12,985 nucleotides of DNA from a virus. Lineage: Duplodnaviria; Heunggongvirae; Uroviricota; Caudoviricetes. Every line of letters begins with the position of its first letter. The first letter of the stretch is position 1. The DNA lies in IMG/VR virus record IMGVR_UViG_2645727562_000001, positions 1-12,985 of that record, one strand, 5' to 3'. The notes beneath the pieces were generated by a model, which was not told the DNA's origin, ran no database searches, and saw only the letters and a program-made list of their open reading frames with translations. This document shows, piece after piece, positions 1-12,985 of the stretch. Both the position numbers and the translations under genes were made by a program.

Positions 1-50
1 CGCTCGACGCTTTCTTTCTGGTATTGAAGGGATTGGGATGGGCTAAGCAT
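1..50 (-). CDS. Start of a further minus-strand nin-region ORF that runs off the left edge
   Basis: ATG (reverse complement of 48-50) overlaps the stop of the upstream ORF at 50-52, continuing the chain of overlapping minus-strand genes. Only about 16 codons are visible. Confidence 0.2.
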   Translation of the reverse strand, partial: MLSPSQSLQYQKESVE

Positions 51-415
51 TATTGGATTCTCTGCATCATGAGAAAGACAATCATGGCGGCGCGGAGGGG
101 ATTTTCATGTATAGCTCGCTTAGATTTACAGTAGGCCACACCGCGTGCACCCCACTCGTCTTCATCGAGATTGATAATGCTAATCCTGTATTTTTCAATA
201 ATCGGCCATGAGTCTGCTGGGTTTGCGCATGGGTTAAAGGATCCGCGCTCAACTTCTACTTCAACTGCGTCTCCGTTTACAATGTCTCCCTCAAATGAGA
301 CAAACACCATATCGCCATTCTCACCTTCTTTGTAATCCGGTGATCCGTTATGAATGGCTTCGAATACCGCCACGTTAATTTCAAAATCACTTAACTGTGA
401 ATAATCCATTGTCAT
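50..415 (-). CDS. Hypothetical nin-region protein, about 121 aa
   Basis: Six-frame ORF 50..451. The internal ATG at 413-415 overlaps the NinE-like stop in an ATGA arrangement, so the likely start is Met13 of the listed ORF (MTMDYSQ...). No family recognised. Confidence 0.5.
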
Positions 416-588
416 TTCCTCGCACGATGTCTTAGCCACCGGATATCCCACAGGTGAGCCGTGTAGTTGAAGGTTTTTACGTCAGATTCTTTTGGGATTG
501 GCTTGCGTTTATTTCTGGAGCGTTTCGTTGGAAGGTATTTGCAGTTTTCGCAGATGATGTCGGTGAAACTTCGTCGCTGTCGCCTCAT
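412..588 (-). CDS. ninE: NinE-like small basic protein, 58 aa
   Basis: Internal Met of ORF 412..678 ([23 protein letters not shown]...[12 protein letters not shown]). Its ATG overlaps the methyltransferase stop (ATGA at 585-588). Position downstream of ninB and the Arg-rich, Cys-containing composition fit a NinE-family protein; assignment is from memory. Confidence 0.45.
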
Positions 589-1112
589 GCCGCCCTCCTG
601 ACGCCCTGCCCGATCGCCATCAATGCCGCTTTGGATACGGTAGTAAACATCCGTCGAGGACTGATGAACGGTCGCCAAATCAGCAGCATGGAGCCTTTGC
701 TGTTTCCCTTCTTCTCCAGCCCTGTCGATGGTTCGATAAAATTAATCCGTCCATCAGTGATAATGCGAACTTCGTCGACACTCTCCAGAGCCTTGCTGAA
801 CCATCCGACTGACATATCCTCTGGCACAAGCATAACTACCGTCTGTCGCTGTTGTATGCACTGCTCAGCGGCTTTTTCCACCCACGGCCTGATATTGCTG
901 TACGGTGGGTTATTCCAGATTGCACCGTGGCTTACCCACTCAGAATTGAGCGCGTCGTCGGCCTCAGTTAGCCAGTGAGCACACAGAGCATTTTTGTCGC
1001 TCGCTGCCGAATCCAGCCAGAATCCAAACTCAATATCCAGTGCATCAAAAAGCCAAAGCGGCGTTTGCCAGCAGTCCTTGTCGTGTGCCGGCGTATTTGA
1101 TTTGATAGTCAT
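585..1112 (-). CDS. Phage orphan DNA N6-adenine methyltransferase (Dam-like)
   Basis: ORF 585..1139 contains the NPPY catalytic motif (..[10 protein letters not shown]..) and a DCWQTP N-terminal motif typical of phage Dam-type N6-adenine methyltransferases. Likely start is ATG 1110-1112 (MTIKSN...), overlapping the ninB stop as ATGA. No restriction enzyme partner is adjacent. Confidence 0.7.
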
Positions 1113-1555
1113 GCAGCCTTCCCTTTTCGTTGTGACCATTCATACTCTCGCCGGGAGTCATCACTCCACCGCACGTTGCGCTCTGAGCCGAACCAAAACA
1201 TGATTTCGATAAGCTCAGTCATGCTGGCCTTTCGCATTTTGCTGGTACGCACGCCAAGCATGACAACGCCACCGTCGATACCAGGAACACTTCGTTGCTC
1301 CAGTTTTTTGGTCTTAAGCCACAGGGCAGTGAACAGGTCTTTCCAGTCTTCCGGTGCCAGCCGTTGACCATGCCATAGCACCTGACGCGAAACATCGTTC
1401 AGCATCGGCCACATACGGTCATTCTGCGCTTTGCTGCGTTTGGGTTCTTTAAGGTGGACTTCGTGGGGTGACTTGTCGTCGATGGGAAGTGAGAGTATTG
1501 CGTCTATGGCGTTATTTCTGATTGCTTCGTTGCGAAGCATGTATATTTGCTTCAT
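1109..1555 (-). CDS. ninB: NinB recombination protein
   Basis: 148-aa product aligns with recalled lambda NinB over the whole length, e.g. DVSRQVLWHGQRLAPEDWK against DVSRQVEWHGRWLDAESWK, and a matching C-terminus [19 protein letters not shown]. Confidence 0.75.
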   Translation of the reverse strand: MKQIYMLRNEAIRNNAIDAILSLPIDDKSPHEVHLKEPKRSKAQNDRMWPMLNDVSRQVLWHGQRLAPEDWKDLFTALWLKTKKLEQRSVPGIDGGVVMLGVRTSKMRKASMTELIEIMFWFGSERNVRWSDDSRREYEWSQRKGKAA

Positions 1556-1841
1556 CGAAATTCTTCTCTTTAATTCCAGCGGATCTGATAGCTTTCATTA
1601 CTGCAATTACCGTTTTGTCTCTCCCATCCTCATAACCCATCGCATAAGCACCTTCTTCACCATCTTTCCAAAAGTCGTCATTCGATTCGGGCCAGTCGAT
1701 ATCCAGTTCAATAGCTGCTCGCGATGCCTGCCATGCCTCCCATGCAATCTCGACCTTGATGTGCATAATCTTCATCACGTCACTTGAAACGTGATATTTG
1801 TTTTTAAACCATTCTTCAAACTGCTTTCTTGATTCGTCCAT
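1512..1841 (-). CDS. Hypothetical acidic protein, 109 aa
   Basis: Intact ORF with a GAGGG Shine-Dalgarno-like motif upstream of the ATG. Its 3' end overlaps the ninB start. No family recognised. Confidence 0.5.
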   Translation of the reverse strand: MDESRKQFEEWFKNKYHVSSDVMKIMHIKVEIAWEAWQASRAAIELDIDWPESNDDFWKDGEEGAYAMGYEDGRDKTVIAVMKAIRSAGIKEKNFDEANIHASQRSNQK

Positions 1842-1858
1842 CGATACTTACCCTCAGT

Positions 1859-2065
1859 TCAACTCACAAAACGCCACGCCATTTTTGCTACAGCGACAGG
1901 CATAACACCGATAATCACCCAGACAAATGCAGCGCCAAACAACGTATACCATGGGTCTTTACCGTCATTCACAAGACGAATGTAGCTATTCAGAACAATA
2001 AAAAACGTCAGAAGAATCCATCCAACGCCAACGCATTTGAATGCGACGAGCATAAACTCAGCCAC
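1859..2065 (-). CDS. Small hydrophobic protein with two predicted transmembrane helices, 64-68 aa
   Basis: ORF 1859..2065 has two long hydrophobic stretches (GVGWILLTFFIVL and FGAAFVWVIIGVMPVAV). GGGGGAGAG lies just upstream of a GTG at 2065; an in-frame ATG is at 2053. It begins immediately after the replication-operon terminator. Confidence 0.4.
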   Translation of the reverse strand: MAEFMLVAFKCVGVGWILLTFFIVLNSYIRLVNDGKDPWYTLFGAAFVWVIIGVMPVAVAKMAWRFVS

Positions 2066-2074
2066 GATTTACTC

Positions 2075-2113
2075 TCCCCCAAATAAAAAGGCCTGCGATT
2101 ACCAGCAGGCCTG
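2075..2113 (-). terminator. Rho-independent terminator ending the O-helicase operon
   Basis: Perfect 8-bp inverted repeat AGGCCTGC...GCAGGCCT (2089-2112). On the minus-strand transcript it is followed by UUUUUAUUU (reverse complement of 2080-2088), about 30 nt after the helicase stop. Confidence 0.5.
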
Positions 2114-2140
2114 TTATTAGCTCAGTGATGTAGATGGTCA

Positions 2141-3577
2141 TCAGAATCCTCCTTTCTTCTTGGACTGCGGTTCCTCGCGTTCACGGCGGCGCATTTCAGC
2201 AGACTGTTGGTCTGTGTCATAAATAGCGCCATTTGCCTGAATGCAATACACCGTGCCGGTATTGCCATGACGATTGAGGCGAAGGATTAGTTCGGTTTCA
2301 CCAGGAGGAACGCTGTCATCAAAAGCGCCTTCACGATGGATCCCCACCCAATAATCGCAATCCTGTTCAATCTGCCCTGTATCTCGTGAGTCACTTGGTA
2401 ATGGGCGTTTATTGGTTCGGCTTTCCAGTGCGCGGTTAAGCTGTGTCAGAAGCACAACAACGCAATCAAGCTCTTTGGCAAGGTTCTTCAGTCCTTTGGT
2501 GATCATGCCGTAAGCAAGGTCGTTGCGATCGGCCTTCTCAGCGGTCATTAGTGTCAGGTAATCGACCAGAATCATGCCAACACATCCTTTTTCTCGCTTG
2601 ATTCGACGGCTTTCGCTGACGATTTGAGCCAGAGATAATCCCGGCGTGTCGTCGATGTAAAGCAGGTCGATTTCACTCAAGCGATTGGCTGTTTCGATCG
2701 CCCTGTTGAAGTCACCATCGTAATCACCCTGATAGCCGTCATCAGCGTCATTTGTCGCCAGAAGGTAAAAAATATTGGGGTTAACACCTGACTTTTGCCC
2801 TACCAGTTTTTCCAGTATCTGGTCACCTGGCATTTCAAGGCTGAACATCAGAGCGGGCTTTTTCTCATGCACTGCGCAGTTGATTGCCATCTGGCTGTAT
2901 AGCGTCGTTTTCCCCATCTTAGGGCGAGCGCCAATGACAAACAAAGAGCCTTTCACCAGACCTTTCGGTGACAGCATCCTGTCCAGCGATGGGATCCCTG
3001 TGCTCATTCCTCGTTGTTCGCCTGACGGGTCAAATCGCTTCTCAAGGTCGCTAACCCAGTCTTCCATGACCTCACCAAATGAGCGAAGGCCGCGACGCGA
3101 TCCGGTTTTTGCATGGTCTGTCAGTTGCGTGAAAATCGCCTGAATAGCTTCGTACTTCTGCGTTGCAGTCATTCCGTTGCGGGAATAGAGCAATTCCGTC
3201 GCTTCAGTCATGCGGTTGATGGCGTAGCGTTCCATTGCGGTTTCACGAACCTGCATTGCATAGGCAACGATGTTTGCTGCGCTTGGCGTGTTCTTTGCGA
3301 TCTCAGCGATATAAGCAAAACCGCCAACAGACTCCGTTAACGATTTACGCTCCAGTTCATCGAAAAGCGTCAGGCCATCTACTGGCTTTTGCTCCCGGTG
3401 CATTATGGTTATTTCTTCGAAAAGGATTTTGTGTGGCCGGCTGTAAAATGAATCAGGCTTCAGCATCGCCAGAACTTTCTGGACGCGCTCACTGCTGTCA
3501 TCATCCAGAAGCAATCCACCAATCACCGCCTGCTCTGCCTCGATGCTATGGGGCGGCGCATAAAAATTATCGGTCAT
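2141..3577 (-). CDS. DnaB-family replicative DNA helicase
   Basis: Product of about 479 aa with an N-terminal DnaB-like domain (IEAEQAVIGGLLLD), Walker A (GARPKMGKTT) and a Walker B-like motif (ILVDYLTLM). ATG at 3575-3577 with GAGGGTG upstream overlaps the O-like gene 3' end; the six-frame track extends to a GTG at 3592. Confidence 0.85.
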   Translation of the reverse strand: MTDNFYAPPHSIEAEQAVIGGLLLDDDSSERVQKVLAMLKPDSFYSRPHKILFEEITIMHREQKPVDGLTLFDELERKSLTESVGGFAYIAEIAKNTPSAANIVAYAMQVRETAMERYAINRMTEATELLYSRNGMTATQKYEAIQAIFTQLTDHAKTGSRRGLRSFGEVMEDWVSDLEKRFDPSGEQRGMSTGIPSLDRMLSPKGLVKGSLFVIGARPKMGKTTLYSQMAINCAVHEKKPALMFSLEMPGDQILEKLVGQKSGVNPNIFYLLATNDADDGYQGDYDGDFNRAIETANRLSEIDLLYIDDTPGLSLAQIVSESRRIKREKGCVGMILVDYLTLMTAEKADRNDLAYGMITKGLKNLAKELDCVVVLLTQLNRALESRTNKRPLPSDSRDTGQIEQDCDYWVGIHREGAFDDSVPPGETELILRLNRHGNTGTVYCIQANGAIYDTDQQSAEMRRREREEPQSKKKGGF

Positions 3578-4532
3578 CGTGTTCACCCTCACGAACTTTC
3601 AGGTAGGTATTATCGTTAAGCAGGAAATCAAATCCCTTTTTGTGCCAGACGGTTCCGCGTTGATGGTTTGGGCGCTCTTCGAACATCCATCGGCAATTTT
3701 CGCCTACGTAGCTCAAATAATTTCTCCAGTCCTGCATCGTGAACCCATGCCCGTCAAGCTGGCGGGTTATCACTCCGGCTTTGCGCCAGAACGTTCGGAT
3801 CTGGTTTTTACGCTTGTCATTCAGTGCGCGGATTCTTGGCGCTTCAGGAAGGATTTCGTGGTAAGCATCGACAACATCCTGACAGCTAACGGAAGGTTTT
3901 TTCTTGTCAGACTTTTTGTCTGCTGCGGTACTCTCTAATACGTCAGTATTAGAGATAATATTATTATATTCTTTATCTGTGGTAATTTGCTGGTAATCTG
4001 CTGGTACAGTATTGCTTGCAGGCATTGGTATTGCTGGCTTTGAGGTGGTAATTTGCTGGTAATCTGCTGGTACAGTATTGCTTGCAGGCATTGGTATTGC
4101 TGGCTTTGAGGTGGTAATTTGCTGGTAATCTGCTGGTACAAAATTTGACTGATAATCGTCATATTTCTCTACCGAGAAAACTGAGAATTTACCGTGTGAA
4201 ACCCAGTCAATCATGCCGAGTTTTTTGAACTTTCTAAGCAGGTACTGAACGCGATCTGGTTTGAGTCCTGTTTCAAACGCCAGAGAGTTTCTACCGCCAA
4301 GTAGCTTCCCTCTGCCTACCAGAATTTCTCCTGCGTCAGTCATTACATACTCAGGCGTATGCTTTGCTTTGAGGATTAAGTGAACCCACAGATGCGCAGC
4401 TTCTGCGTCCTTGTAAAACGGCACATCCATAATTTTACGGTGCAGCAAGGCATACCCCTTACCGCTGCTTTGATGCGGTTGTTGTAGCCTTCTGGCCTCT
4501 CTGGCTTCGGCTAGATTAGATATGTTACTCAT
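3567..4532 (-). CDS. Replication initiator, lambda O-like, with internal tandem 22-aa repeats
   Basis: 321-aa ORF in the O position, immediately upstream of and overlapping the helicase gene. The central region has three copies of [22 protein letters not shown] encoded by the 66-bp DNA repeats. The conserved-looking C-terminal domain fits phage replication initiators. Confidence 0.7.
3979..4139. repeat. About 2.4 tandem copies of a 66-bp unit containing TGCTGGTA-type sub-repeats; putative replication origin iterons
   Basis: Exact 66-bp periodicity (copies begin at 3979, 4045 and 4111). Each unit holds several TGCTGGTA-like short repeats. A strongly AT-rich stretch lies next to it at 3935-3978. 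Iterons followed by an AT-rich region inside the initiator gene is the lambda ori architecture. Confidence 0.6.
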
Positions 4533-4671
4533 GACCTTTCTCCTTCTGCATCAGCTTCACTTTTTCCAACTCAGCCCGGAATCGACCAGGCTGCTTGAAG
4601 CTGGACAGGAAGCGATCACGTAGTATGTGTTTGTGAATTTTGTCCTGGTAAGGACTGAGTTGTTTTGTCAT
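4525..4671 (-). CDS. Unlisted small ORF between cII and the O-like gene, 48 aa, basic
   Basis: Reverse-complement reading gives AGGAG, six nt, then ATG (4669-4671): [48 protein letters not shown]. Its stop overlaps the O-like start codon. Below the length cutoff of the supplied track. Confidence 0.3.
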
Positions 4672-4703
4672 AATTACTCCTGTGGATTGATCCAGTAATT
4701 CCC

Positions 4704-5000
4704 TCAGAATTGCATATCAATTTGCTTAAAATCCTCGGTGGCGGCCGGGGATTTTTTCTTTGTGATTTCATCAAGCGCATACTTAAAAGCCCTGCTAATC
4801 GGACTGATGTCTGATGCCATTCCGAAAGCACACAAGACCGAAGCAATAAATCTCCAGTCCGTTCTGCTTATCTTCGATTCATGACAGCCAATCATCTTTG
4901 CCAGACCGCGCTGGGTAAGTGTTGATAGGTTGATGAGTAAATCTGTTTCTGCGCGATCAACGTCACGCTGTGATAGTTTGCTGTAACTTGTTCGTTCCAT
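4704..5000 (-). CDS. cII: CII-like transcriptional activator (divergent from lambda CII)
   Basis: 98 aa in the position downstream of cro and nutR. C-terminus [18 protein letters not shown] resembles lambda CII NKKRPAATERSEQIQMEF, and a central HTH-like segment is present. Confidence 0.7.
4741..4770 (+). ncRNA. 3' terminator hairpin of a putative OOP-like antisense RNA overlapping the cII 3' end
   Basis: Plus-strand hairpin ATCCTCGGTGGCGGCCGGGGAT (4741-4762) followed by TTTTTTCTTT, antisense to the last roughly 20 codons of cII. This is the position and form of the lambda OOP RNA terminator. The 5' end and promoter are not confidently placed. Confidence 0.4.
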
Positions 5001-5085
5001 TTCTTAAGATTTCCAATAGTGAATAGTTAGTTGAAAGGTATGCGTGGAAACGCATATGGCCTTAGTTGGTCAGATATCTTGGGAC

Positions 5086-5131
5086 TCGCTTTGTCAGCGA
5101 CGTAGGACGAATGTCCATTGTGAAAATAGCG
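5086..5131 (-). promoter_or_regulatory. nutR: boxA-like CGCTATTTT and boxB hairpin with GACAA loop
   Basis: On the minus-strand transcript just after the cro stop: CGCTATTTT (reverse complement of 5123-5131) lies where lambda has boxA CGCTCTTAC, then UCGCU-GACAA-AGCGA (reverse complement of 5086-5100). The same hairpin recurs at nutL. The loop matches the P22-type boxB as recalled. Confidence 0.5.
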
Positions 5132-5138
5132 GTGTTAC

Positions 5139-5348
<210 letters not shown>

Positions 5349-5363
5349 TTAGTACATGCAACC

Positions 5364-5392
5364 ATTATCACCGCTAGAGGTAAAATAGTCAA
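5364..5392 (-). promoter_or_regulatory. pR promoter driving cro
   Basis: Minus-strand -35 TTGACT (reverse complement of 5387-5392) and -10 GATAAT (reverse complement of 5364-5369), overlapping OR1/OR2 exactly as in lambda. Confidence 0.85.
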
Positions 5393-5404
5393 CACGCACG
5401 GTGT

Positions 5405-5429
<25 letters not shown>
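5366..5429. promoter_or_regulatory. Right operator OR1-OR2-OR3, lambda type
   Basis: Three 17-bp operator half-palindromes: OR1 5366-5382 (TATCACCGCTAGAGGTA), OR2 5390-5406 (CAACACGCACGGTGTTA), OR3 5413-5429 (TATCCCTTGCGGTGATA). OR2 and OR3 match lambda; OR1 differs at one position from the canonical sequence as recalled. Confidence 0.9.
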
Positions 5430-6153
<724 letters not shown>

Positions 6154-6160
6154 CACGTAA

Positions 6161-6598
6161 ATGATTAAAGAACGTATTTCTTATATCATTCCGATTGCGA
6201 TGGATGAAGGCAACCCAGTAACTCCAGTTCTTATCTATGAAATGGATAAAGACTCCCATGAAGTGGATCTATCATTTGGCGCTTTTTTTATCGGCCTTAA
6301 GGCTACAAAAAAATATTCCATAGGCATTGAGGTTTTCAATGCTCAAGAAATACCGATACCAATTGACACAAAACTGTACTCCAACCATAAGTTTTTTACG
6401 GTAGCAGAAGCCAACGATGGAGAAACCATCGTATCAACTTCTATGAGAATTAACTTCCCAAGGGTGAAAATTATCAAGCCTGGGATATTCGAAGTTAGAG
6501 CATCACTGGTTAATCCTGATAAAGGCGAAGTAATTGATGTAAAAAGTTCGTTTTTTGACGTGAAGATAACAGGATCAGTTCGCGATGAGTTTAGATAA
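6161..6598 (+). CDS. Unknown soluble protein, 145 aa; first gene of the cargo cassette in the rexA position
   Basis: ORF starts 8 nt after the cI stop codon. Markedly AT-rich compared with cI. No transmembrane segment or recognisable catalytic motif; alternating hydrophobic pattern suggests a beta-rich fold. The downstream gene overlaps it by 14 nt. Confidence 0.6.
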   Translation: MIKERISYIIPIAMDEGNPVTPVLIYEMDKDSHEVDLSFGAFFIGLKATKKYSIGIEVFNAQEIPIPIDTKLYSNHKFFTVAEANDGETIVSTSMRINFPRVKIIKPGIFEVRASLVNPDKGEVIDVKSSFFDVKITGSVRDEFR

Positions 6599-6956
6599 CA
6601 AGGTTGCTCAGCTTCGTCCAAATCAAAACATATCTCGCCCAATTGGACACTATTCCACTGATGATGCATACTCACGGCATGGTGGAGGAAACGGCGGAGG
6701 TAACATGCTTGAGGCTAGAGTTGCAAAGCTAGAGTCTGATGTTGAATACATCAAGCGCGATCTCGCTGAAGTAAAGTCAGATATAAAATCTGTAGATTCT
6801 CGTCTGTCAGGTATTGAGACAAGCATTAGCTCAGCAAAAATCACCATCAAGGCATCTGCGGTCGTTGTCAGTTTCGTGTTCGCATTTTGCGCCTACATTT
6901 TTGGAAGTTATGTTTCCAAAATCCTTGATGCCTTAAACGGACTCGTTCTTAAGTAA
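6585..6956 (+). CDS. Coiled-coil protein with a single C-terminal transmembrane helix (XhlA-like architecture); second cargo gene in the rexB position
   Basis: The 123-aa ORF overlaps the upstream gene. An alternative ATG at 6705 is preceded by GGAGG at a 4-nt spacing and would give an 83-aa product starting MLEARVAKLESD. Features: Gly-rich low-complexity N-terminus (HGGGNGGGN), heptad-like coiled coil (LEARVAKLESDVEYIKRDLAEVKSDIKSVDSRLSGIE), then a hydrophobic anchor (ASAVVVSFVFAFCAYIFGSYV). Confidence 0.6.
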   Translation: MSLDNKVAQLRPNQNISRPIGHYSTDDAYSRHGGGNGGGNMLEARVAKLESDVEYIKRDLAEVKSDIKSVDSRLSGIETSISSAKITIKASAVVVSFVFAFCAYIFGSYVSKILDALNGLVLK

Positions 6957-6962
6957 CACACA

Positions 6963-6990
6963 ACCCGGCCTCAGCGCCGGGTTTTCTTTG
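6963..6990 (+). terminator. Rho-independent terminator of the cI-cargo operon (tImm-like)
   Basis: Stem ACCCGGC / GCCGGGT with a 6-nt loop, followed by TTTCTTTG, 7 nt after the cargo stop codon. The flanking sequence resembles the lambda region between rexB and OL as recalled. Confidence 0.6.
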
Positions 6991-7146
6991 CCTCACGATC
7001 CCCTTCACCCAATAACACATAACCAATTGTATTTATTTGAAAATTAATAGATACAACTCACTAAACATCGCAATTCAGATCTCTCGATCACCTCCCAAGC
7101 CACACACCCCTGCAAAAAAATAAATCTATATAAAAAACATACAGAT

Positions 7147-7209
7147 AACCATCTGCGGTGATAAATTATCTCTGGCGGTGTTGACATAAATACCACTGGC
7201 GGTGATACT
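7147..7209 (+). promoter_or_regulatory. Left operator OL3-OL2-OL1 with pL promoter, lambda type
   Basis: OL3 7147-7163 (AACCATCTGCGGTGATA), OL2 7167-7183 (TATCTCTGGCGGTGTTG), OL1 7191-7207 (TACCACTGGCGGTGATA). pL -35 TTGACA 7181-7186 and -10 GATACT 7204-7209. Matches the canonical lambda pL/OL sequence; pL reads rightward in this window. Confidence 0.92.
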
Positions 7210-7277
7210 AAACACATCAGCAGGACGCACTACTCACCAGGGCGGTGAATATACAACGATTCGAATATGAATCTACG

Positions 7278-7292
7278 GCGCTGACAAAGCGC
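7278..7292 (+). promoter_or_regulatory. nutL boxB hairpin (GCGCU-GACAA-AGCGC)
   Basis: Perfect 5-bp stem with 5-nt GACAA loop about 60 nt downstream of the pL start, matching the hairpin at nutR and the P22-type boxB as recalled. No convincing boxA is seen upstream. Confidence 0.55.
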
Positions 7293-7302
7293 AATAACCA
7301 AA

Positions 7303-7445
7303 GTGAACTTTGGGGTGTGGTGAAGGGTTCATGGACGGGAATATGTCGCACGTAAAGCGGCGAGGCCTGCGGGACTATTGCCGAATTGAAGTAGGCCGAA
7401 ACAGGTCGAAATGGGTCTCCCACCTACCACACCACCAAAGTTCAT
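7303..7445 (+). promoter_or_regulatory. Long-range stem in the N leader, adjacent to the N ribosome-binding site (RNase III-site analogue)
   Basis: TGAACTTTGGGGTGTGGTG (7303-7322) is complementary to CACCACACCACCAAAGTTCA (about 7425-7444) with one bulge, enclosing about 100 nt. The N Shine-Dalgarno GGAGG (7448-7452) lies directly 3' of the stem. Lambda has an analogous GGGGTGTGTG / CACACACCACC leader stem. Confidence 0.5.
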
Positions 7446-7457
7446 CAGGAGGTCTAT

Positions 7458-7841
7458 ATGACACGCAGAACTCAGTTCAAAGGCAATTCACGTTCTCGTC
7501 GTCGTGAGCGTTTAAAGGCAAAGGCATTAGCTAACGGCGTACTGGCCCGCGAAGAAGCAATAAGTTCAGAAGTATTACACCGCCCTACTCTAAGCAGAGC
7601 GCAGATTCAGGCTAAAGGTACTCACGAAACGCCTGAGCGCATAGAAGACGCTAAGCCAATTAAGTTCATGGCACAGGACGTGATCTGGCAACAGAAAGAA
7701 TACAGACGCAATCTGGAGAGAGCGGCCATTGTGTACGCGAATGAGTTTGGGCATAGGCAACCAGAAACTGGTGTATGTCTTCCAAATGTAGCTCTTTACG
7801 CGGCAGGCTACAGGAAATCAAAACAACTGACGGCGAGGTAA
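7458..7841 (+). CDS. N: N-family transcription antiterminator, non-lambda type
   Basis: 127-aa protein directly downstream of pL and nutL with GGAGG Shine-Dalgarno. N-terminal arginine-rich motif (GNSRSRRRERLKAKALA). C-terminus LPNVALYAAGYRKSKQLTAR resembles the P22 N-like (gp24) C-terminus as recalled. Not similar to lambda N. Confidence 0.85.
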   Translation: MTRRTQFKGNSRSRRRERLKAKALANGVLAREEAISSEVLHRPTLSRAQIQAKGTHETPERIEDAKPIKFMAQDVIWQQKEYRRNLERAAIVYANEFGHRQPETGVCLPNVALYAAGYRKSKQLTAR

Positions 7842-7843
7842 TT

Positions 7844-8236
7844 ATGGGTCAGGAAGAAAAATATGAGCTTAAAAAGCTCATTGAAGAAGACGCCATAGAA
7901 GAAATTGCAGCATTAACAACAGCTATAAATAATATTAGGTATGCGCTAAATACGCTTATCTCCTCATGCGACAAAAATAGCAGGGAATTTTTGATACTTG
8001 GCGCAGCTCTAGGAATAGTTGATGCGGCAACGCTTCACCTAATTACTCATGACGATATTCTTATTGAGCCGTATGAAACATTACTGCTTGTCAGGCAAAA
8101 AATGGCTGATGCCGCAGCAAATGGAGACCTTCAACTTTACATCGACTTAAGGAAAGTATTAAGGCGAATGGTCAGAACTGAAGGAGATATCCCACTGAGC
8201 GATGCTAAACAAGGCATACAAGCAAAGCTGGAATGA
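7844..8236 (+). CDS. Hypothetical helical protein, 130 aa, AT-rich, immediately downstream of N
   Basis: ATG at 7844, 2 nt after the N stop, preceded by GAGG (MGQEEKYELKKLIEE...). The supplied ORF 7775..8236 overlaps N in another frame, so the shorter start is preferred. AT-rich codon usage. No family recognised. Confidence 0.55.
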   Translation: MGQEEKYELKKLIEEDAIEEIAALTTAINNIRYALNTLISSCDKNSREFLILGAALGIVDAATLHLITHDDILIEPYETLLLVRQKMADAAANGDLQLYIDLRKVLRRMVRTEGDIPLSDAKQGIQAKLE

Positions 8237-8296
8237 CCATTATCCTGATGAAGTATCGAAAGCACAGTCAGCAATTAGCAAAGCTCTTGGGGAAGA

Positions 8297-8457
8297 ATGA
8301 TGAATAAGAAATACATTGTTGAAGTTATAGAGCGAGAAACGAAAGAAGTAATCAAACATTTCGAATTTGATAATTATAGAAAACCTGACCGCGTAGAAGA
8401 AGGATTGTTGCGACAAAGTAATCTCGAAAAATTTGATGTTGTCATGCGATGCGAATA
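8297..8457 (+). CDS. Unlisted small ORF, 53 aa
   Basis: GGGGAAGA then ATGATG at 8297: MMNKKYIVEVIERETKEVIKHFEFDNYRKPDRVEEGLLRQSNLEKFDVVMRCE. AT-rich. Below the track length cutoff. Confidence 0.35.
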
Positions 8458-8551
8458 AGCGCCTATAGCAGATTTACGAGTCTGCTATGTGAGCAATGTC
8501 GCTCGTAACTAAACAGGAGCCGACTTGTTCTGATTATTGGAAATCTTCTTT

Positions 8552-8578
8552 GCCCTCCAGTGTGAGGGCCTTTTTATA
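8552..8578 (+). terminator. Rho-independent terminator within the pL operon (tL1-like)
   Basis: Stem GCCCTC / GAGGGC with a 6-nt loop (8552-8569) followed by CTTTTTAT, lying between the small post-N genes and the cIII-like gene. Presumably read through by N-modified polymerase. Confidence 0.55.
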
Positions 8579-8641
8579 TGCATACCAATAACGCTTCACT
8601 CGAGGCGTTTTCGTTATGCAATCAAACAGAAGGAGCATCCT

Positions 8642-8812
8642 ATGCAACAGTTCGCTATTGCAGGGGCGGCATCGGTTCGCCCTTTCAACCCGATTTTATC
8701 GGTGCAGCATTCACGAAAAAATATTTTAACCGGAGCAGACTTTAAACAACCTCGCGTTAAGAGCTTGCTGGATCGTCTTGTTGAGTTTCTGAATCAAAAG
8801 GTACAGCCATGA
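8642..8812 (+). CDS. cIII: CIII-like protein (putative FtsH inhibitor), 56 aa
   Basis: Internal start of ORF 8537..8812 with AGGAG 7 nt upstream; the listed N-terminal extension spans the terminator. N-terminus MQQFAIAG resembles lambda CIII MQYAIAG, and there is an amphipathic segment (KSLLDRLVEFLNQ). Similarity beyond the N-terminus is weak. Confidence 0.5.
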   Translation: MQQFAIAGAASVRPFNPILSVQHSRKNILTGADFKQPRVKSLLDRLVEFLNQKVQP

Positions 8813-8973
8813 AAAAACCAACTTACGAGGAACTGGAAGAAGCCCTGAAAGAGCTTAGAAGAATGGCTTTCGCCAGACGCACTAACTCTCACAACTGCGG
8901 CCCATTTCAGTACTCTGATTTATGCGAGGACATCATTGAGGTAACTCAACTGATTAAGGTCGTTAAGCAATGA
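8809..8973 (+). CDS. Unlisted small ORF, 54 aa, in the kil position
   Basis: ATGA overlap with the cIII-like stop. Product MKKPTYEELEEALKELRRMAFARRTNSHNCGPFQYSDLCEDIIEVTQLIKVVKQ. No similarity to lambda Kil as recalled. Confidence 0.35.
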   Translation: MKKPTYEELEEALKELRRMAFARRTNSHNCGPFQYSDLCEDIIEVTQLIKVVKQ

Positions 8974-9077
8974 GCATTGCGGATACATGGTCAGACGAAG
9001 AATTCATTCGTCAGATGAAAGAAATGCTCAATCAGCACAAAGAACAGGAGAAAGATGATGATTCTGACTCTGAATGA
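8970..9077 (+). CDS. Unlisted very small acidic ORF, 35 aa
   Basis: ATGA overlap with the previous ORF (MSIADTWSDEEFIRQMKEMLNQHKEQEKDDDSDSE). Its 3' end overlaps the next gene's start region. Weak support. Confidence 0.2.
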   Translation: MSIADTWSDEEFIRQMKEMLNQHKEQEKDDDSDSE

Positions 9078-9366
9078 TAAGCGTGAAATATCGCAAATCA
9101 TCGCAAGTTTTACCGATGAAGATTACGAACGAATCAACAGTGAAGTTGATCGTCTCTGCAAACGTTGCGACCCAATAAGCGAAATGCTTCGCTCATATAA
9201 ACCAGATGAACACACTAAGGACGCTATCGACTGGCTGGAAGATGATGACTGTAACTATCAGGAAAAAGCCGCTGAATGGTTCTGGGATGCAATAACCGAA
9301 AGAGTTAAGGCTGAATATGCCTTCGCAATATTCAAACGCAGACATATTTATGGAGAAGCTGCATGA
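9055..9366 (+). CDS. Hypothetical protein, 103 aa
   Basis: AGGAG 5 nt upstream of ATGATG at 9055. Its stop overlaps the RecT start as ATGA. No family recognised. Confidence 0.5.
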   Translation: MMILTLNDKREISQIIASFTDEDYERINSEVDRLCKRCDPISEMLRSYKPDEHTKDAIDWLEDDDCNYQEKAAEWFWDAITERVKAEYAFAIFKRRHIYGEAA

Positions 9367-10265
9367 GCAATATCGTTGAATTCGTTAAACAGCAAGAGCA
9401 GTTATTCTGCGGAGCATTGACTGAACAGACGGTGACATGGGCTAAGGAAAGCCAGTTTGCAATTCAGTATTTCCAGAAAAACGATTACCTGGCTAAAACA
9501 GCACTGGCAAATCCAACCAGCGCACAGAACGCCATCATCAATGTTGCGGCGATCGGCATCACCTTAAACCCGGCCAGCAAACTGGCTTATCTGGTTCCTC
9601 GCGACGGCATGGTGTGCCTTGATATCAGTTACATGGGATTACTTCATCTTGCGCAATCGACAGGATCAATTAAGTGGGGGCAATGCAAACTGGTGTACTC
9701 AAACGACACCTATGAATCAAATGGCCTTGATTCAGCACCAACCCACAAATACAACGCATTTGGTGAGCGAGGCTCTATTGTTGGAGGTTATTGCACGGTT
9801 AAAACAGCAGATGGTGACTACCTGACTGAAGAAATGAGTCTGGCAGAAATTAAAGCTGTGGAAGCAACGAGCAAGGCAAAGAATGGACCGTGGAAAACAT
9901 TCTGGGAAGAGATGGCGCGTAAAACAATAGTTAAACGCGCCAGCAAATACTGGCCTAAAGCCCAGCGACTGGATAATGCCATTCACCTTCTTAACGAAGA
10001 TGAAGGTATGCATCAGGAACCAGTTATGCCGCACAAATCAGAGGAAGATATCCGCGAAGATGAACGGAAACGCCAGCAGGAAATAATGGATAAAGCACAA
10101 CTTCTTTGCGATGAAATGGCTCAGGCAGAAAACATGGATGATTTGAAGCGATATTTTGCAGAAGCATATCGCCTGACATCTGGAATGAAATTGCAGCAGA
10201 ACGTACAAGCCATTTACATAGAATGCAAAGCGAAGCTGGAGGTTGCCAGTGAGCAAACTGTATGA
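9363..10265 (+). CDS. recT: RecT-family single-strand annealing recombinase
   Basis: 300-aa product. C-terminal segment NGPWKTFWEEMARKTIVKRASKYWP aligns with Rac RecT NGPWVTHWEEMAKKTAIRRLFKYLP as recalled. Occupies the bet position of the pL operon. Confidence 0.8.
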   Translation: MSNIVEFVKQQEQLFCGALTEQTVTWAKESQFAIQYFQKNDYLAKTALANPTSAQNAIINVAAIGITLNPASKLAYLVPRDGMVCLDISYMGLLHLAQSTGSIKWGQCKLVYSNDTYESNGLDSAPTHKYNAFGERGSIVGGYCTVKTADGDYLTEEMSLAEIKAVEATSKAKNGPWKTFWEEMARKTIVKRASKYWPKAQRLDNAIHLLNEDEGMHQEPVMPHKSEEDIREDERKRQQEIMDKAQLLCDEMAQAENMDDLKRYFAEAYRLTSGMKLQQNVQAIYIECKAKLEVASEQTV

Positions 10266-10731
10266 AATTGCCAATGAATACGCAAAATTGATGGATTCAG
10301 ATTTAGAGCCAGAGATGATTGCTGACACAATAGAAGGCATGGAAGGAGAATTTACCGATAAAATAGAGCAACTTCTTGCCATTATTAAAAATGAATCTGG
10401 TTATGCTGAACGCCTCAAGGACGAGGCAAAGTCACTGAATGAACGAGCAGCAGTAATTCAAAATAAGATTGATAGCATTATGGCATATATAGCGTCATCG
10501 CTTGAAATGGTTGGCAAGAAAAAGATTCGAGCAGGTATTCACCAGGTAACAATCCGCAAACCGTCAGAAACTGTAGAAATCATCGACTCAAGCGCCATTC
10601 CTCCTGAATACGTTGAGTTTGAAACGACAATTAAAGCCGACAAGTTGGCAATCAAACACCAACTAAAAGCAGGAATAAATATCCCCGGCGCTCAACTCAA
10701 AGTTGGGAAACCTTCACTTCTTATCAAATAA
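10249..10731 (+). CDS. Coiled-coil protein, possibly siphovirus Gp157-like, about 160 aa
   Basis: ORF 10243..10731. GGAGG (10237-10241) precedes a GTG at 10249, which is the preferred start; the first in-frame ATG is at 10291. Family assignment is tentative and from memory. Confidence 0.45.
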   Translation: MSKLYEIANEYAKLMDSDLEPEMIADTIEGMEGEFTDKIEQLLAIIKNESGYAERLKDEAKSLNERAAVIQNKIDSIMAYIASSLEMVGKKKIRAGIHQVTIRKPSETVEIIDSSAIPPEYVEFETTIKADKLAIKHQLKAGINIPGAQLKVGKPSLLIK

Positions 10732-10742
10732 CGGTATCGCCT

Positions 10743-11057
10743 ATGAAAAAGACTCCATGGGAGAAATGGGAAGTCGATTTCTTGCGCGAAGTAGCGGCGA
10801 CAATGCCAGTTGAAGTTATCGCTGAAAAACTGGAAAGGACTGAAAAAGCAGTTATGGCGAAAGCAACAAGGATTGGCGCTGACATTGTTAGCCGACTTCG
10901 TGGAAGACGCTGGACAAGAGCCGAAGTATCACTTTTCGGTAAGTTCTCCGCAGAAGAAATAGCAATTGCAACCTGCCGCTCAATTTATTCAGTAAGAGCT
11001 ATGCGATACAAGCTAAAAAAACTCGATGAAGAAAGAGCAGGCATACAAATAAATTAA
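10743..11057 (+). CDS. Hypothetical basic protein, 104 aa, with two similar helical half-repeats
   Basis: Intact ORF. Internal duplication-like pattern (W..W/E..L......E.IA......RT/S..A.......) suggests a tandem helix-turn-helix-like fold. Inference only. Confidence 0.45.
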   Translation: MKKTPWEKWEVDFLREVAATMPVEVIAEKLERTEKAVMAKATRIGADIVSRLRGRRWTRAEVSLFGKFSAEEIAIATCRSIYSVRAMRYKLKKLDEERAGIQIN

Positions 11058-11073
11058 CATGGAGTAATTAACA

Positions 11074-11355
11074 ATGAAGCTAAACATCGACCTCGGCAAA
11101 TACGTTATTACCGGAACCAAATACGATCTGATTCTTAGCGAAAGAGGAATTATCAAAGAAGGCGAGAATGCAGGGAAAGAAACACTAAGCCGTATCGGTT
11201 ATTACAGCAAGTTTGAGCATCTGGTTAAAGAGTTATGCAACCGTGAAATCCTGTTATCTCAGGCGCAGACGCTACAGGATATTCAGCAGCATATCGAGAC
11301 TTTAGGTGTGTCACTTAGCATGGCTATTGACCAGTTCGTGGAGAGTAAATCATGA
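11074..11355 (+). CDS. Hypothetical protein, 93 aa
   Basis: Intact ORF with GGAG-like motif upstream. Its stop overlaps the next small ORF as ATGA. Confidence 0.5.
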
Positions 11356-11516
11356 GAGGTCTTGCATACAATCCCGGCATTCTTCCGGCAGAAATGATTA
11401 TTCGCCAACGCGTAAAGCCAATGCCATCGAGAGAGGAATTGCTTAAGAGAAATTCTTTTCCATCAGTGAATCAAAACAAATATCTGAATGCGATGTGGCG
11501 GAGTGGGAAGAAATGA
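11352..11516 (+). CDS. Unlisted small ORF, 54 aa
   Basis: ATGA overlap at both ends (start 11352, stop 11514-11516 overlapping the ATG at 11513): [54 protein letters not shown]. Confidence 0.3.
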
Positions 11517-11989
11517 AACAAATGTCACTAATTGAGATGGATGGATTTCTGAAAGGTAAATGCATCCCAAGTGATTTAAAGGTTAACGAAACAAACGCTG
11601 AATATCTGGTGCGTAAGTTCGGTGAACTTGAATCAAAACTAGAAACAGCGTTGCGTGAGTGTCGTTCTGCTGGAATCACGATTGATAACCTTGAGGCTAA
11701 ATGCGCGAAGATGGCTGCTGAAAATACCTCACTTAAGCAATCTGAGAAGGAATTTAATGACTTTTGTCGTGAGGAGTTTAGCGAATGGGAAGATGATGTT
11801 ACTGAAACCCCAGCCACCGATGCTTTTCTGGCTGAAGTACGGGCGCAGGCGTTTAATGACCTTTGCTCGGCGTTCGTTAAACACGCGAATCTCGCGGGAA
11901 TGGATGATGGTGAGCTAGTGAGGCTTAAATATGCGACGGACGCCCTGCTGCATTGTGCGGAACAGCTTCGCAAAGGAGTTCAGTCATGA
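11513..11989 (+). CDS. Hypothetical acidic helical protein, about 158 aa
   Basis: ORF 11495..11989. Preferred start is ATG 11513 ([12 protein letters not shown]...), overlapping the upstream stop. Its stop overlaps the next ATG. Confidence 0.5.
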
Positions 11990-12219
11990 GCATCCGAACT
12001 GAACATGGATTTGGTCCTTCAACGGTCGAAGTCGAATGGCTTGATGATTGCCCTAAGTGCCAGCACGGCAAAGCCAAGGTAACAGGATGGTCGGTAACCA
12101 AAGATTCTTTGTGGGCGGGTGATGAGGCCGTTTGTTCCAAATGCGGTCACAAAGGTGAAATCGATGCTGATGGAGAGAATGCCTGGGTGGAATGGGACGA
12201 AATCGAGGAGGCACAATGA
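11986..12219 (+). CDS. Small zinc-ribbon protein, 77 aa (two CxxC pairs)
   Basis: Internal ATG of ORF 11953..12219 overlapping the upstream stop (ATGA). Contains CPKC and CSKC motifs about 30 residues apart. Confidence 0.5.
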   Translation: MSIRTEHGFGPSTVEVEWLDDCPKCQHGKAKVTGWSVTKDSLWAGDEAVCSKCGHKGEIDADGENAWVEWDEIEEAQ

Positions 12220-12971
12220 GCAACATCGACATCGACACACTGGCGCTGCGTGAGGCGGCAGAACGTGCAATTCCGGCAATGGAACGCCTGTTAATGTTGC
12301 CAGCTGATGATGATTTGTTAACTGAACAGGAACTTAAGGATTACGGTGTGGATATTGATGCGCTCAACGCCTTCAAATTTCTGACCGGACCAGAAACCGT
12401 GTTGGCACTACTGGATGAACGGGAAAGAAACCAGCAATACATCAAACGCCGCGACCAGGAGAACGAGGATATTGCGCTAACGGTAGGGAAGCTGAGAGTT
12501 GAGCTTGAGGAAGTAAAACAACACGCTGAAGAATTATCCGAAACCAAGGCTGTTCGTAACCAATGGCGGCCAGATCTTTGCCCAATAACCGGACGTGCAT
12601 TTTTCATGTGGATTGAGCATCCAACATTGGGAAATGTGCCGACATATGGTGGCCCATTAGATAGTTACACCATTCCAACAAAGGACGGTGACGGTGAGTT
12701 TTCATGTGAGCGTTACGATCATGATTTTGGCGGTTGGGTAGAAAGCGAATGTCTTGGGTTATATCTGATTGATGATAGAGAACAATGCAGGGTCTACGAA
12801 CTGGAGGAACGCGTTAAGGAACTGGATGCTCGGGAAATATCGCTCCCGGAACGTAGCAGCATGCTTCATCGAACAGATTTTCACGATGATTACCAAACGG
12901 TAATGGCATACAAAGTTTCTGAAGTCATCGATGCAATCCGCGCTACTGGCATTCGCATCAAAGGAGAGTGA
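12216..12971 (+). CDS. Ead/Ea22-like family protein, about 251 aa
   Basis: GAGGAGG precedes the ATG at 12216 (MSNIDIDTLALREAAE...), which overlaps the upstream stop. N-terminal coiled-coil and acidic composition fit the Ead/Ea22-like proteins common in enterobacterial lambdoid prophages; assignment is from memory. Confidence 0.5.
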   Translation: MSNIDIDTLALREAAERAIPAMERLLMLPADDDLLTEQELKDYGVDIDALNAFKFLTGPETVLALLDERERNQQYIKRRDQENEDIALTVGKLRVELEEVKQHAEELSETKAVRNQWRPDLCPITGRAFFMWIEHPTLGNVPTYGGPLDSYTIPTKDGDGEFSCERYDHDFGGWVESECLGLYLIDDREQCRVYELEERVKELDAREISLPERSSMLHRTDFHDDYQTVMAYKVSEVIDAIRATGIRIKGE

Positions 12972-12985
12972 TATGAGCGCTATAA

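Follow-up and report, generated by a model that had tools for sequence, protein, structure and literature searches.

The stretch of viral DNA analyzed here (IMG/VR record IMGVR_UViG_2645727562_000001, positions 1 to 12,985; referred to below as the window, 12,985 nucleotides in full) carries a gene for an O-like replication initiator, and within that gene lies a 66-bp tandem repeat that is a candidate replication origin. A gene for a DnaB-family replicative helicase lies directly downstream and overlaps the 3′ end of the initiator gene (Table 1). About 2.4 exact copies of the repeat had been described in an initial annotation made from the sequence alone. Tandem Repeats Finder placed a 66-bp period at 3979-4140, with 2.45 perfect copies (reported as 2.5), 100% matches, and a score of 324, values that put the repeat far beyond chance. 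The unit had also been called rich in sub-repeats, and it is: with at most one mismatch allowed, TTACCAGCA has 10 matches in the window, and 6 of these lie within the repeat. The mean in shuffled sequence was 2.7, and none of 200 shuffles reached 10. Translation of the initiator gene gives a 22-residue unit twice, followed by 10 residues of the next copy.

The conserved unit is a 30-bp block, TGTACCAGCAG/ATTACCAGCAA/ATTACCAC, consisting of three 11-bp direct sub-repeats, rather than the 66-mer that had been taken as the iteron. The repeat is real, and the spacer within it is variable. The exact 30-mer is present in three copies in the window and in two copies, at the annotated coordinates, in each of three related loci (L001 to L003), always with 66-bp spacing. 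The window blocks have no internal dyad symmetry. A spacing of 66 bp corresponds to six 11-bp steps and to 22 codons. The three sub-repeats of one block fall in codon phases 2, 1, and 0 and encode no amino acid repeat; the constraint therefore acts on the DNA and not on the protein. The 36-bp spacer differs in sequence among divergent phages and is not conserved, and it is repeated in the window only because block and spacer were duplicated together. The first in-phase spacer 11-mer, AAAGCCAGCAA (4033-4043 and 4099-4109, minus strand), also has a core, CCAGCA, and judging by its sequence could be a weak fourth site in each unit. In phage L, Sf6, and the other divergent homologues, this core is not conserved.

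An AT-rich stretch and a perfect palindrome adjoin the blocks. The initial annotation had placed the AT-rich stretch at 3935-3978. The base composition was correctly noted, but the core is limited to 3956-3978, and 3932-3955 is a palindrome that had been missed. The AT-rich core has a GC content of 9% (40-bp windows give 22 to 25%) and encodes an Asn/Ile-rich peptide, DKEYNNII. The palindrome has a 4-nucleotide centre and only 3 G-C pairs in its stem; folding of its single-stranded DNA gives −8.6 kcal/mol (z = −4.2).

The initiator matched the PHROGs family phrog_345, "replication initiation O-like," at 9e-89, and PHROG families labelled "DnaD-like helicase loader" matched its residues 25 to 214 at 1.7e-20. 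Pfam and NCBIfam searches with the initiator gave no family, and a sequence search of the Protein Data Bank (PDB) gave nothing meaningful (best E value, 0.2). An AlphaFold2 model built on a 43-sequence alignment had a predicted local distance difference test score above 90 for two domains (residues ~30 to 128 and ~210 to 321) and below 50 for residues 131 to 204, which are predicted to form a disordered linker. The 22-residue repeats fall within this predicted linker, as the initial annotation had suggested. Blocks, AT-rich stretch, and palindrome together encode residues 131 to 201, so the whole candidate cis-acting origin sits in the predicted disordered linker. A Foldseek search of the PDB with the model gave weak matches (best E value, 4.9e-3; none at or below 1e-3), mostly to winged helix-turn-helix DNA-binding proteins of the MarR, ArsR, CRP, and TubR types, along with a few ribosomal proteins. 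The N-terminal domain is thus predicted to be a winged-helix domain. One 302-residue allele (P0114) has a second small in-frame tandem duplication, of 3 residues (AREAREARR), near the initiator N terminus. The helicase matched NCBIfam TIGR03600 (phage_DnaB) at 1e-174, above the family cutoff, and is the presumed partner of the initiator C-terminal domain. No separate loader gene was seen between the two genes.

Table 1. Positions of the initiator gene, the candidate origin elements within it, and neighbouring genes in the window
Feature	Position	Strand	Description	Basis
Initiator gene ("O-like," HK022/HK620 type)	3567-4532	minus	321 residues	Open reading frame (ORF) and translation; phrog_345
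Block 1 (first in gene sense)	4111-4140	minus	TGTACCAGCAG ATTACCAGCAA ATTACCAC; presumed initiator-binding site	Exact 30-mer
Spacer 1	4075-4110	minus	36 bp, encodes 12 residues; duplicated spacer copy	Alignment with HK620, mEp235, and VT2-Sakai
Block 2	4045-4074	minus	Same 30-mer as block 1
Spacer 2	4009-4044	minus	36 bp, identical to spacer 1
Block 3	3979-4008	minus	Same 30-mer; adjoins AT-rich stretch
AT-rich stretch	3956-3978	minus	23 bp, 9% GC, sense strand AGATAAAGAATATAATAATATTA; presumed DNA-unwinding element	Composition
Palindrome	3932-3955		TCTCTAATAC-gtca-GTATTAGAGA; perfect, 10-bp stem; conserved, at far end of candidate origin	Inverted-repeat search
DnaB-family replicative helicase gene, phage encoded	2141-3577	minus	478 residues	Pfam DnaB and DnaB_C; NCBIfam TIGR03600; gene call in L178
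DUF2740 ORF	4525-4671	minus	48 residues; between cII and initiator gene
cII	4704-5000	minus
cro			Early-right operon, between cI-type repressor and cII in listed order
cI-type repressor	5440-6153	plus

Conservation of the blocks, AT-rich stretch, and palindrome

The initiator gene was compared by megablast with 50,697 phage records, giving 46 full-length matches, of which 40 were listed. The 40 listed matches (at least 98.9% identity) span 900 bp (899 bp in two of them) and not 966 bp, and each carries two blocks. Alignment of the window with HK620, mEp235, and VT2-Sakai revealed one clean 66-bp insertion in the window; apart from this insertion, the gene DNA is 98.9 to 99.9% identical to the O genes of the three phages. 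Since the relatives carry two blocks and the insertion is clean, the ancestral state is block, 36-bp spacer, block. The blocks themselves are already annotated in these phages. VT2-Sakai (AP000422) has two 30-bp features, "ori iteron 1" and "ori iteron 2," described as bound by O protein, and in HK620 both identical 30-mers are joined as an annotated rep_origin. The annotated iterons map to blocks 3 and 2 of the window, and block 1 is the additional copy. Homologous repeats in Sf6 and phage L are annotated as a putative ori.

The same layout was found in much more distant relatives. Divergent homologues included phage L, Sf6, CobraSix, a Klebsiella phage, and a Yersinia phage (42 to 61% protein identity), and two IMG/VR scans contributed 160 further loci, for 166 loci overall, down to about 35 to 45% protein identity. 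The more divergent of the scans yielded 80 loci that are 35 to 44% identical to a relative that is itself 39% identical. In all 80, 66 bp was the best self-match spacing among spacings of 20 to 120 bp; the runners-up were mostly 55 and 77 bp, that is, 66 bp minus or plus 11. Blocks exactly 66 bp apart, followed by an AT-rich stretch and then a palindrome, were present in 163 of the 166 loci. The exceptions were L070 and L071, with 831-nucleotide matches of the size expected for one-block alleles, and one further locus that was lost from the analysis unreported. The conserved layout comprises two blocks (three in the window and in L014), each with three 11-bp sub-repeats with the core CCA(A/G)C, an AT-rich equivalent of 21 to 26 bp with 5 to 24% GC (29 bp in one register-slipped locus), and a palindrome with a 9- to 11-bp stem and a 4-nucleotide centre. 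Together with the annotated blocks of VT2-Sakai and HK620, these data support the earlier proposal that the repeat contains candidate origin iterons within the initiator gene.

Blocks are near-identical within a phage and different between phages (TTACCAGCA, TACCAGCA, TGTCCAACG, TGTCCAGCC, GTGCCAACA, TTCCCAACA, GTGCCATCA, and others), a sequence pattern that is one of concerted evolution. In three more distant proteins (P0163, P0233, and P0252), peptide repeats with an 11-residue period (33 nucleotides, 3 × 11) occupy the same place in the protein. Their sequences hint that sites are phased at 11 bp outside the enterobacterial group as well.

The palindrome lies at the same position in L004 to L008 and in L014 to L173, despite the coding sequence that it occupies. 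About 15 different versions of the stem were found in the homologues, and each is perfectly self-complementary. Across 37 distinct sequences, 9 of the 10 stem pairs showed double changes, and there were no one-sided changes (for example, G-C to G-T). The segments in this alignment were picked by a palindrome search, so the 97.8% pairing that it shows is partly by construction; for this reason, the real evidence is the conserved offset. Every locus with blocks has, at the same offset, a perfect palindrome of 9 bp or more, and the chance of such a palindrome was estimated at about 0.1% per locus. The restriction to double Watson-Crick changes suggests a palindrome that acts as duplex DNA and not as an RNA hairpin. 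The palindrome is not annotated as part of the origin in the phage records inspected; in phage L, its equivalent carries just an automated "terminator" label.

Block number and modularity of the initiator

Alleles with one to four blocks were found, encoding initiators of 277 to 343 residues, in agreement with the prediction of the initial annotation that copy number and initiator length would vary together between strains. The common form, dominant everywhere, has two blocks and 299 residues. Three blocks (321 residues) are present in the window, in L014, and in 25 of the best 120 protein clusters. A four-block allele (343 residues) is carried by E. coli JMK_KBN3987 and represented by protein cluster P0001, which has 35 members, and a one-block allele (277 residues) is carried by E. 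coli O111:H8 strain 9662 (L013). L070 and L071, in which no repeat was detected, also look like one-block alleles. Four-block and one-block alleles each occur in complete, closed genomes. The region matched 374 of 5,426 complete E. coli genomes. The ~94 distinct full-coverage rows were all two-block, and other rows included one four-block and one one-block allele; block number was read here from the span of the rows listed, because coverage does not discriminate (two overlapping pieces are joined on two-block targets).

Three-block alleles occur on at least nine spacer backgrounds, and in all of them but one, both spacers within the allele are identical. The spacers of several match a known two-block variant. 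These results indicate many independent and recent duplications. The exact 321-residue protein of the window was found on 8 contigs, and the 7 places shown represent 7 different assemblies, among which three different immunity regions occur. The allele is thus a real one, not an assembly artefact, and it persists.

The initiator is modular, and the blocks vary with one of its domains. In phage L and Sf6, the C-terminal domain is near-identical to that of the window initiator, while the N-terminal domain and the blocks are different. Over 89 distinct N/C combinations, the distance between block cores correlated with N-domain identity (Spearman rho, −0.61) much more strongly than with C-domain identity (−0.19). 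This is the pattern expected if the N-terminal domain reads the blocks and the C-terminal domain engages a helicase or loader, and from this co-variation, the blocks would be specific for their cognate initiator. In P0141, P0144, and P0146, the same N-terminal domain and 22-residue-spaced repeats are fused to a lambda-O-like C terminus with the motif WANDIRLMR. The sequences of these three proteins suggest natural hybrids, in which origin recognition and the choice of helicase or loader were swapped independently.

Interpretation of the repeat

The data show how the region is built and conserved, that it is constrained as DNA, that its modules vary together, and that copy number is polymorphic. 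On this evidence, the repeat is very probably the initiator-binding part of a prophage theta-replication origin, expanded in the window from two blocks to three. Initiator binding, DNA unwinding, recruitment of the helicase, and whatever the third block may do are inferred, the first three by analogy with lambda and other iteron origins. By this analogy, the winged-helix N-terminal domain of the initiator would bind the sub-repeats on one face of the helix and oligomerize, the resulting strain would open the adjacent AT-rich stretch, and the C-terminal domain would recruit the DnaB-type helicase that the phage itself encodes immediately downstream. The extra unit would have arisen by unequal recombination or slippage between the two identical 30-bp blocks, with block and spacer copied in frame and the linker lengthened by 22 residues. 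A paper on phage L described its six 11-bp repeats as "likely the origin" and pointed to genetic data indicating that the replication region of L acts as a unit (PMC8022706).

Several points weigh against this interpretation. The origin annotations in the databases were made by analogy with lambda, and a search of the searchable literature for binding, unwinding, or origin-activity experiments on this origin type turned up none, only lambda-type work. There is no detectable relation between the initiator and lambda O, and therefore the lambda analogy is one of layout and not of homology. The winged-helix fold matches are weak (best E value, 5e-3). Physical linkage may account for part of the co-variation of N-terminal domain and blocks, and there is no phylogenetic independence among the pairs compared. 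Finally, the three-block allele is rare, being found in 1 of 80 IMG/VR loci, none of the ~94 complete-genome rows, and none of the 40 phage records listed. This rarity suggests that the third block may be neutral or mildly deleterious rather than useful.

There is nearly an even chance that the blocks are origin elements and that the third copy, as something that slippage or unequal crossing-over produced, is neutral and transient and affects neither origin strength nor initiator function. Copies and spacers alike show 100% identity, which indicates a recent duplication, and such duplications have recurred on many backgrounds while the two-block form has stayed dominant. In addition, two iterons of ori-lambda together with its AT-rich region suffice for unwinding and in vitro replication (PMC7466680). 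On the other hand, the occurrence of the exact window protein in at least seven assemblies and three immunity regions indicates that the allele persists and spreads. In the ori-lambda variants of Shiga toxin (Stx) phages, efficient replication requires the two extra iterons (PMC7466680), and additional sites can therefore make a difference.

A more elaborate proposal, which we consider rather unlikely as a whole, is that block number is an in-frame "dial" on the origin and that the initiator reads the 11-bp repeats head-to-tail, with the palindrome as a distinct element. Fast gain and loss of 66-bp units, over the range of one to four blocks, could alter initiator site number and linker length together, and the covarying palindrome may be a distinct loading or cruciform element. 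If so, the dial could tune replication strength or help the phage to escape origin-directed exclusion or defence, and head-to-tail reading would differ from the binding of lambda O dimers to dyad-symmetric iterons.

Selection at the protein level would make the 22-residue units a functional peptide repeat or an adjuster of linker length, with the DNA repetition as a by-product. The period is a multiple of three, the frame stays open, and the peptide repeat is an exact 22 residues; furthermore, a 9-residue peptide is repeated at exactly 22-residue spacing in 15 of 150 family representatives. We nevertheless consider this explanation improbable. The 11-bp sub-repeats are read in three frames without amino acid periodicity, the peptide lies in a predicted disordered region, and the spacer peptide is not conserved between phages, while the 66-bp DNA spacing is invariant. 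The adjoining AT-rich stretch and the strictly Watson-Crick palindrome are also features of DNA.

We give equally little credence to the idea that the palindrome and the T-rich run on the plus strand (3932-3978) are an intrinsic terminator antisense to the initiator gene. A simple terminator scan flagged 3932-3955 with the tail TAATATTATT on the plus strand, and the automated label at the equivalent place in phage L agrees with it. The stem has few G-C pairs, however, and the tail is mixed A/T. None of the stem changes in the 37 distinct sequences produced a G-U pair, no promoter-like site was found nearby, and a terminator would leave the phased blocks unexplained. A terminator was rejected as the main explanation of the palindrome because every stem change is a double Watson-Crick change.

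An assembly error is scarcely credible as the source of the extra unit: the window is apparently a draft contig (L178), and its 162-bp perfect repeat is comparable to short-read length, but the identical 321-residue product comes from separate assemblies, ~25 further protein clusters have three blocks, and the four-block and one-block alleles are in closed genomes.

This type of origin is already annotated in related phages, and the extra copy in the window is largely ordinary, a minor variant that will not surprise specialists. The module is widespread, occurring in Stx-converting prophages of E. coli O157 and O111, in HK022, HK620, and Sf6, and in P22-like Salmonella phages. Stx phages reportedly must replicate if toxin is to be produced effectively (PMC7466680). 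This origin type appears to be known by annotation by analogy only, and the comparative data provide a map for experiments on it, consisting of the 66-bp spacing, the phased sub-repeats, the AT-rich stretch, the covarying palindrome, and the disordered linker. The natural alleles with one, two, three, and four blocks are a ready-made series for relating site number to origin firing, and the one-block prophages (L013 and, apparently, L070 and L071) would be naturally occurring material for testing how few sites suffice. The strict 66-bp rule and the 11-bp phasing that distant relatives also obey may add to the written record on this origin type, as may the compensatory evolution of the palindrome and the recurrent series of one to four blocks. 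All three are refinements of a known kind of origin.

Neighbouring genes and comparison with known origins

The genes around the initiator form a typical lambdoid early-right operon on the minus strand (Table 1). The DUF2740 ORF bears the label "tail protein" in PHROGs (phrog_1913), as it does in several RefSeq phage records; since the ORF sits in an early operon, the label looks like a propagated misannotation. A 33-bp sequence at 4664-4696 (minus strand) has zero mismatches to the sequence reported to be conserved in lambdoid phages at the oop promoter and 5′ end (PMC3349717), and a strong hairpin with a U-run (AAAAUCCUCGG...CCGGGGAUUUUUU) lies at about 4728-4757 (plus strand), within the 3′ end of cII. 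From their sequences, the two elements together look like an oop-type antisense RNA. An Rfam scan of the entire window gave no family at gathering score, and this includes the oop-type element. No sigma-70 promoter was found in a scan of 3500-4700, and there are no DnaA boxes (TTWTNCACA) in or near the origin region.

The candidate origin has several direct repeats, helically phased, with an adjoining AT-rich element and an initiator gene nearby, as in iteron-type origins generally. In the G38P/oriL system of SPP1, too, the origin lies within the initiator's own gene, direct repeats stand beside an AT-rich region, and the phage encodes a DnaB-type helicase. The window initiator did not reach the threshold for the domain of the SPP1 G38P type (Phage_rep_org_N, PF09681; E value, 0.17; 12.3 bits against a cutoff of 23.3). 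In 2 of 43 distant family representatives, this domain was matched at 1.4e-5, and on this sequence evidence, a remote relationship to G38P-type replisome organizers is possible.

Lambda ori shares with the window a site in the middle of the initiator gene, between the two domains that lambda O and the window initiator both have, and the order of repeats, AT-rich stretch, and palindrome with a 4-nucleotide centre. In lambda (L010), these elements lie at 535-621, about 622-662, and 663-690, respectively. The initial annotation had identified the lambda ori architecture in the window, and this holds for the layout. It does not hold for the initiator or for the form of the repeats. BLASTP of the window initiator against lambda O found nothing, and no Phage_rep_O domain (PF04492) was found in the initiator even at an E value of 10 or less, in a run in which lambda O scored 5.7e-36 and P22 gp18 scored 6.9e-38. 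Homology of the initiator to lambda O was rejected on these grounds. Lambda and P22 have four sites of ~19 to 20 bp, each internally dyad symmetric, at spacings of 20, 24, and 23 bp, whereas the window has direct 11-bp repeats in blocks spaced by 66 bp. Lambda O recruits the lambda P loader and the host DnaB, while the presumed partner of the window initiator is a phage DnaB homologue. The P22 gene 18 product has the same N-terminal domain as lambda O. Like the window, P22 encodes its own DnaB-type helicase, and the gp18 C terminus is weakly similar to the window protein (E value, 2e-4), which is consistent with a DnaB-type helicase partner common to both.

Variation in the number of initiator sites inside the O gene, with a change in the length of O, is also known for the six-iteron ori-lambda of Stx phages 933W and P27. 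The extra iterons there are those distal to the AT-rich region (PMC7466680). For these variants, experiments addressed both binding and whether the extra iterons are necessary, and the two extra ones were required for efficient replication (PMC7466680). The origin and initiator of 933W and P27 belong to a different family from those of the window.

The closest likeness is to HK022, HK620, VT2-Sakai (Sp5), Stx2-86, and mEp235, which have the same blocks, 66-bp spacing, AT-rich stretch, palindrome, and DnaB-type helicase. Sf6 and Salmonella phage L (ST64T) share the architecture but have a different block sequence. Relative to the HK022/HK620/VT2-Sakai type, the initiator gene of the window is 99% identical outside the extra unit, and the window has three blocks instead of two (by comparison with the 40 records listed of 46) and a linker that is longer by 22 residues (321 versus 299 in all). 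The mid-gene site, the downstream helicase, the identical blocks spaced by 66 bp, and the AT-rich stretch and palindrome characteristic of this type are all found in the window. By its sequence, the feature in the window is a member of the HK022/HK620/VT2-Sakai type of origin, which is annotated as putative in GenBank.

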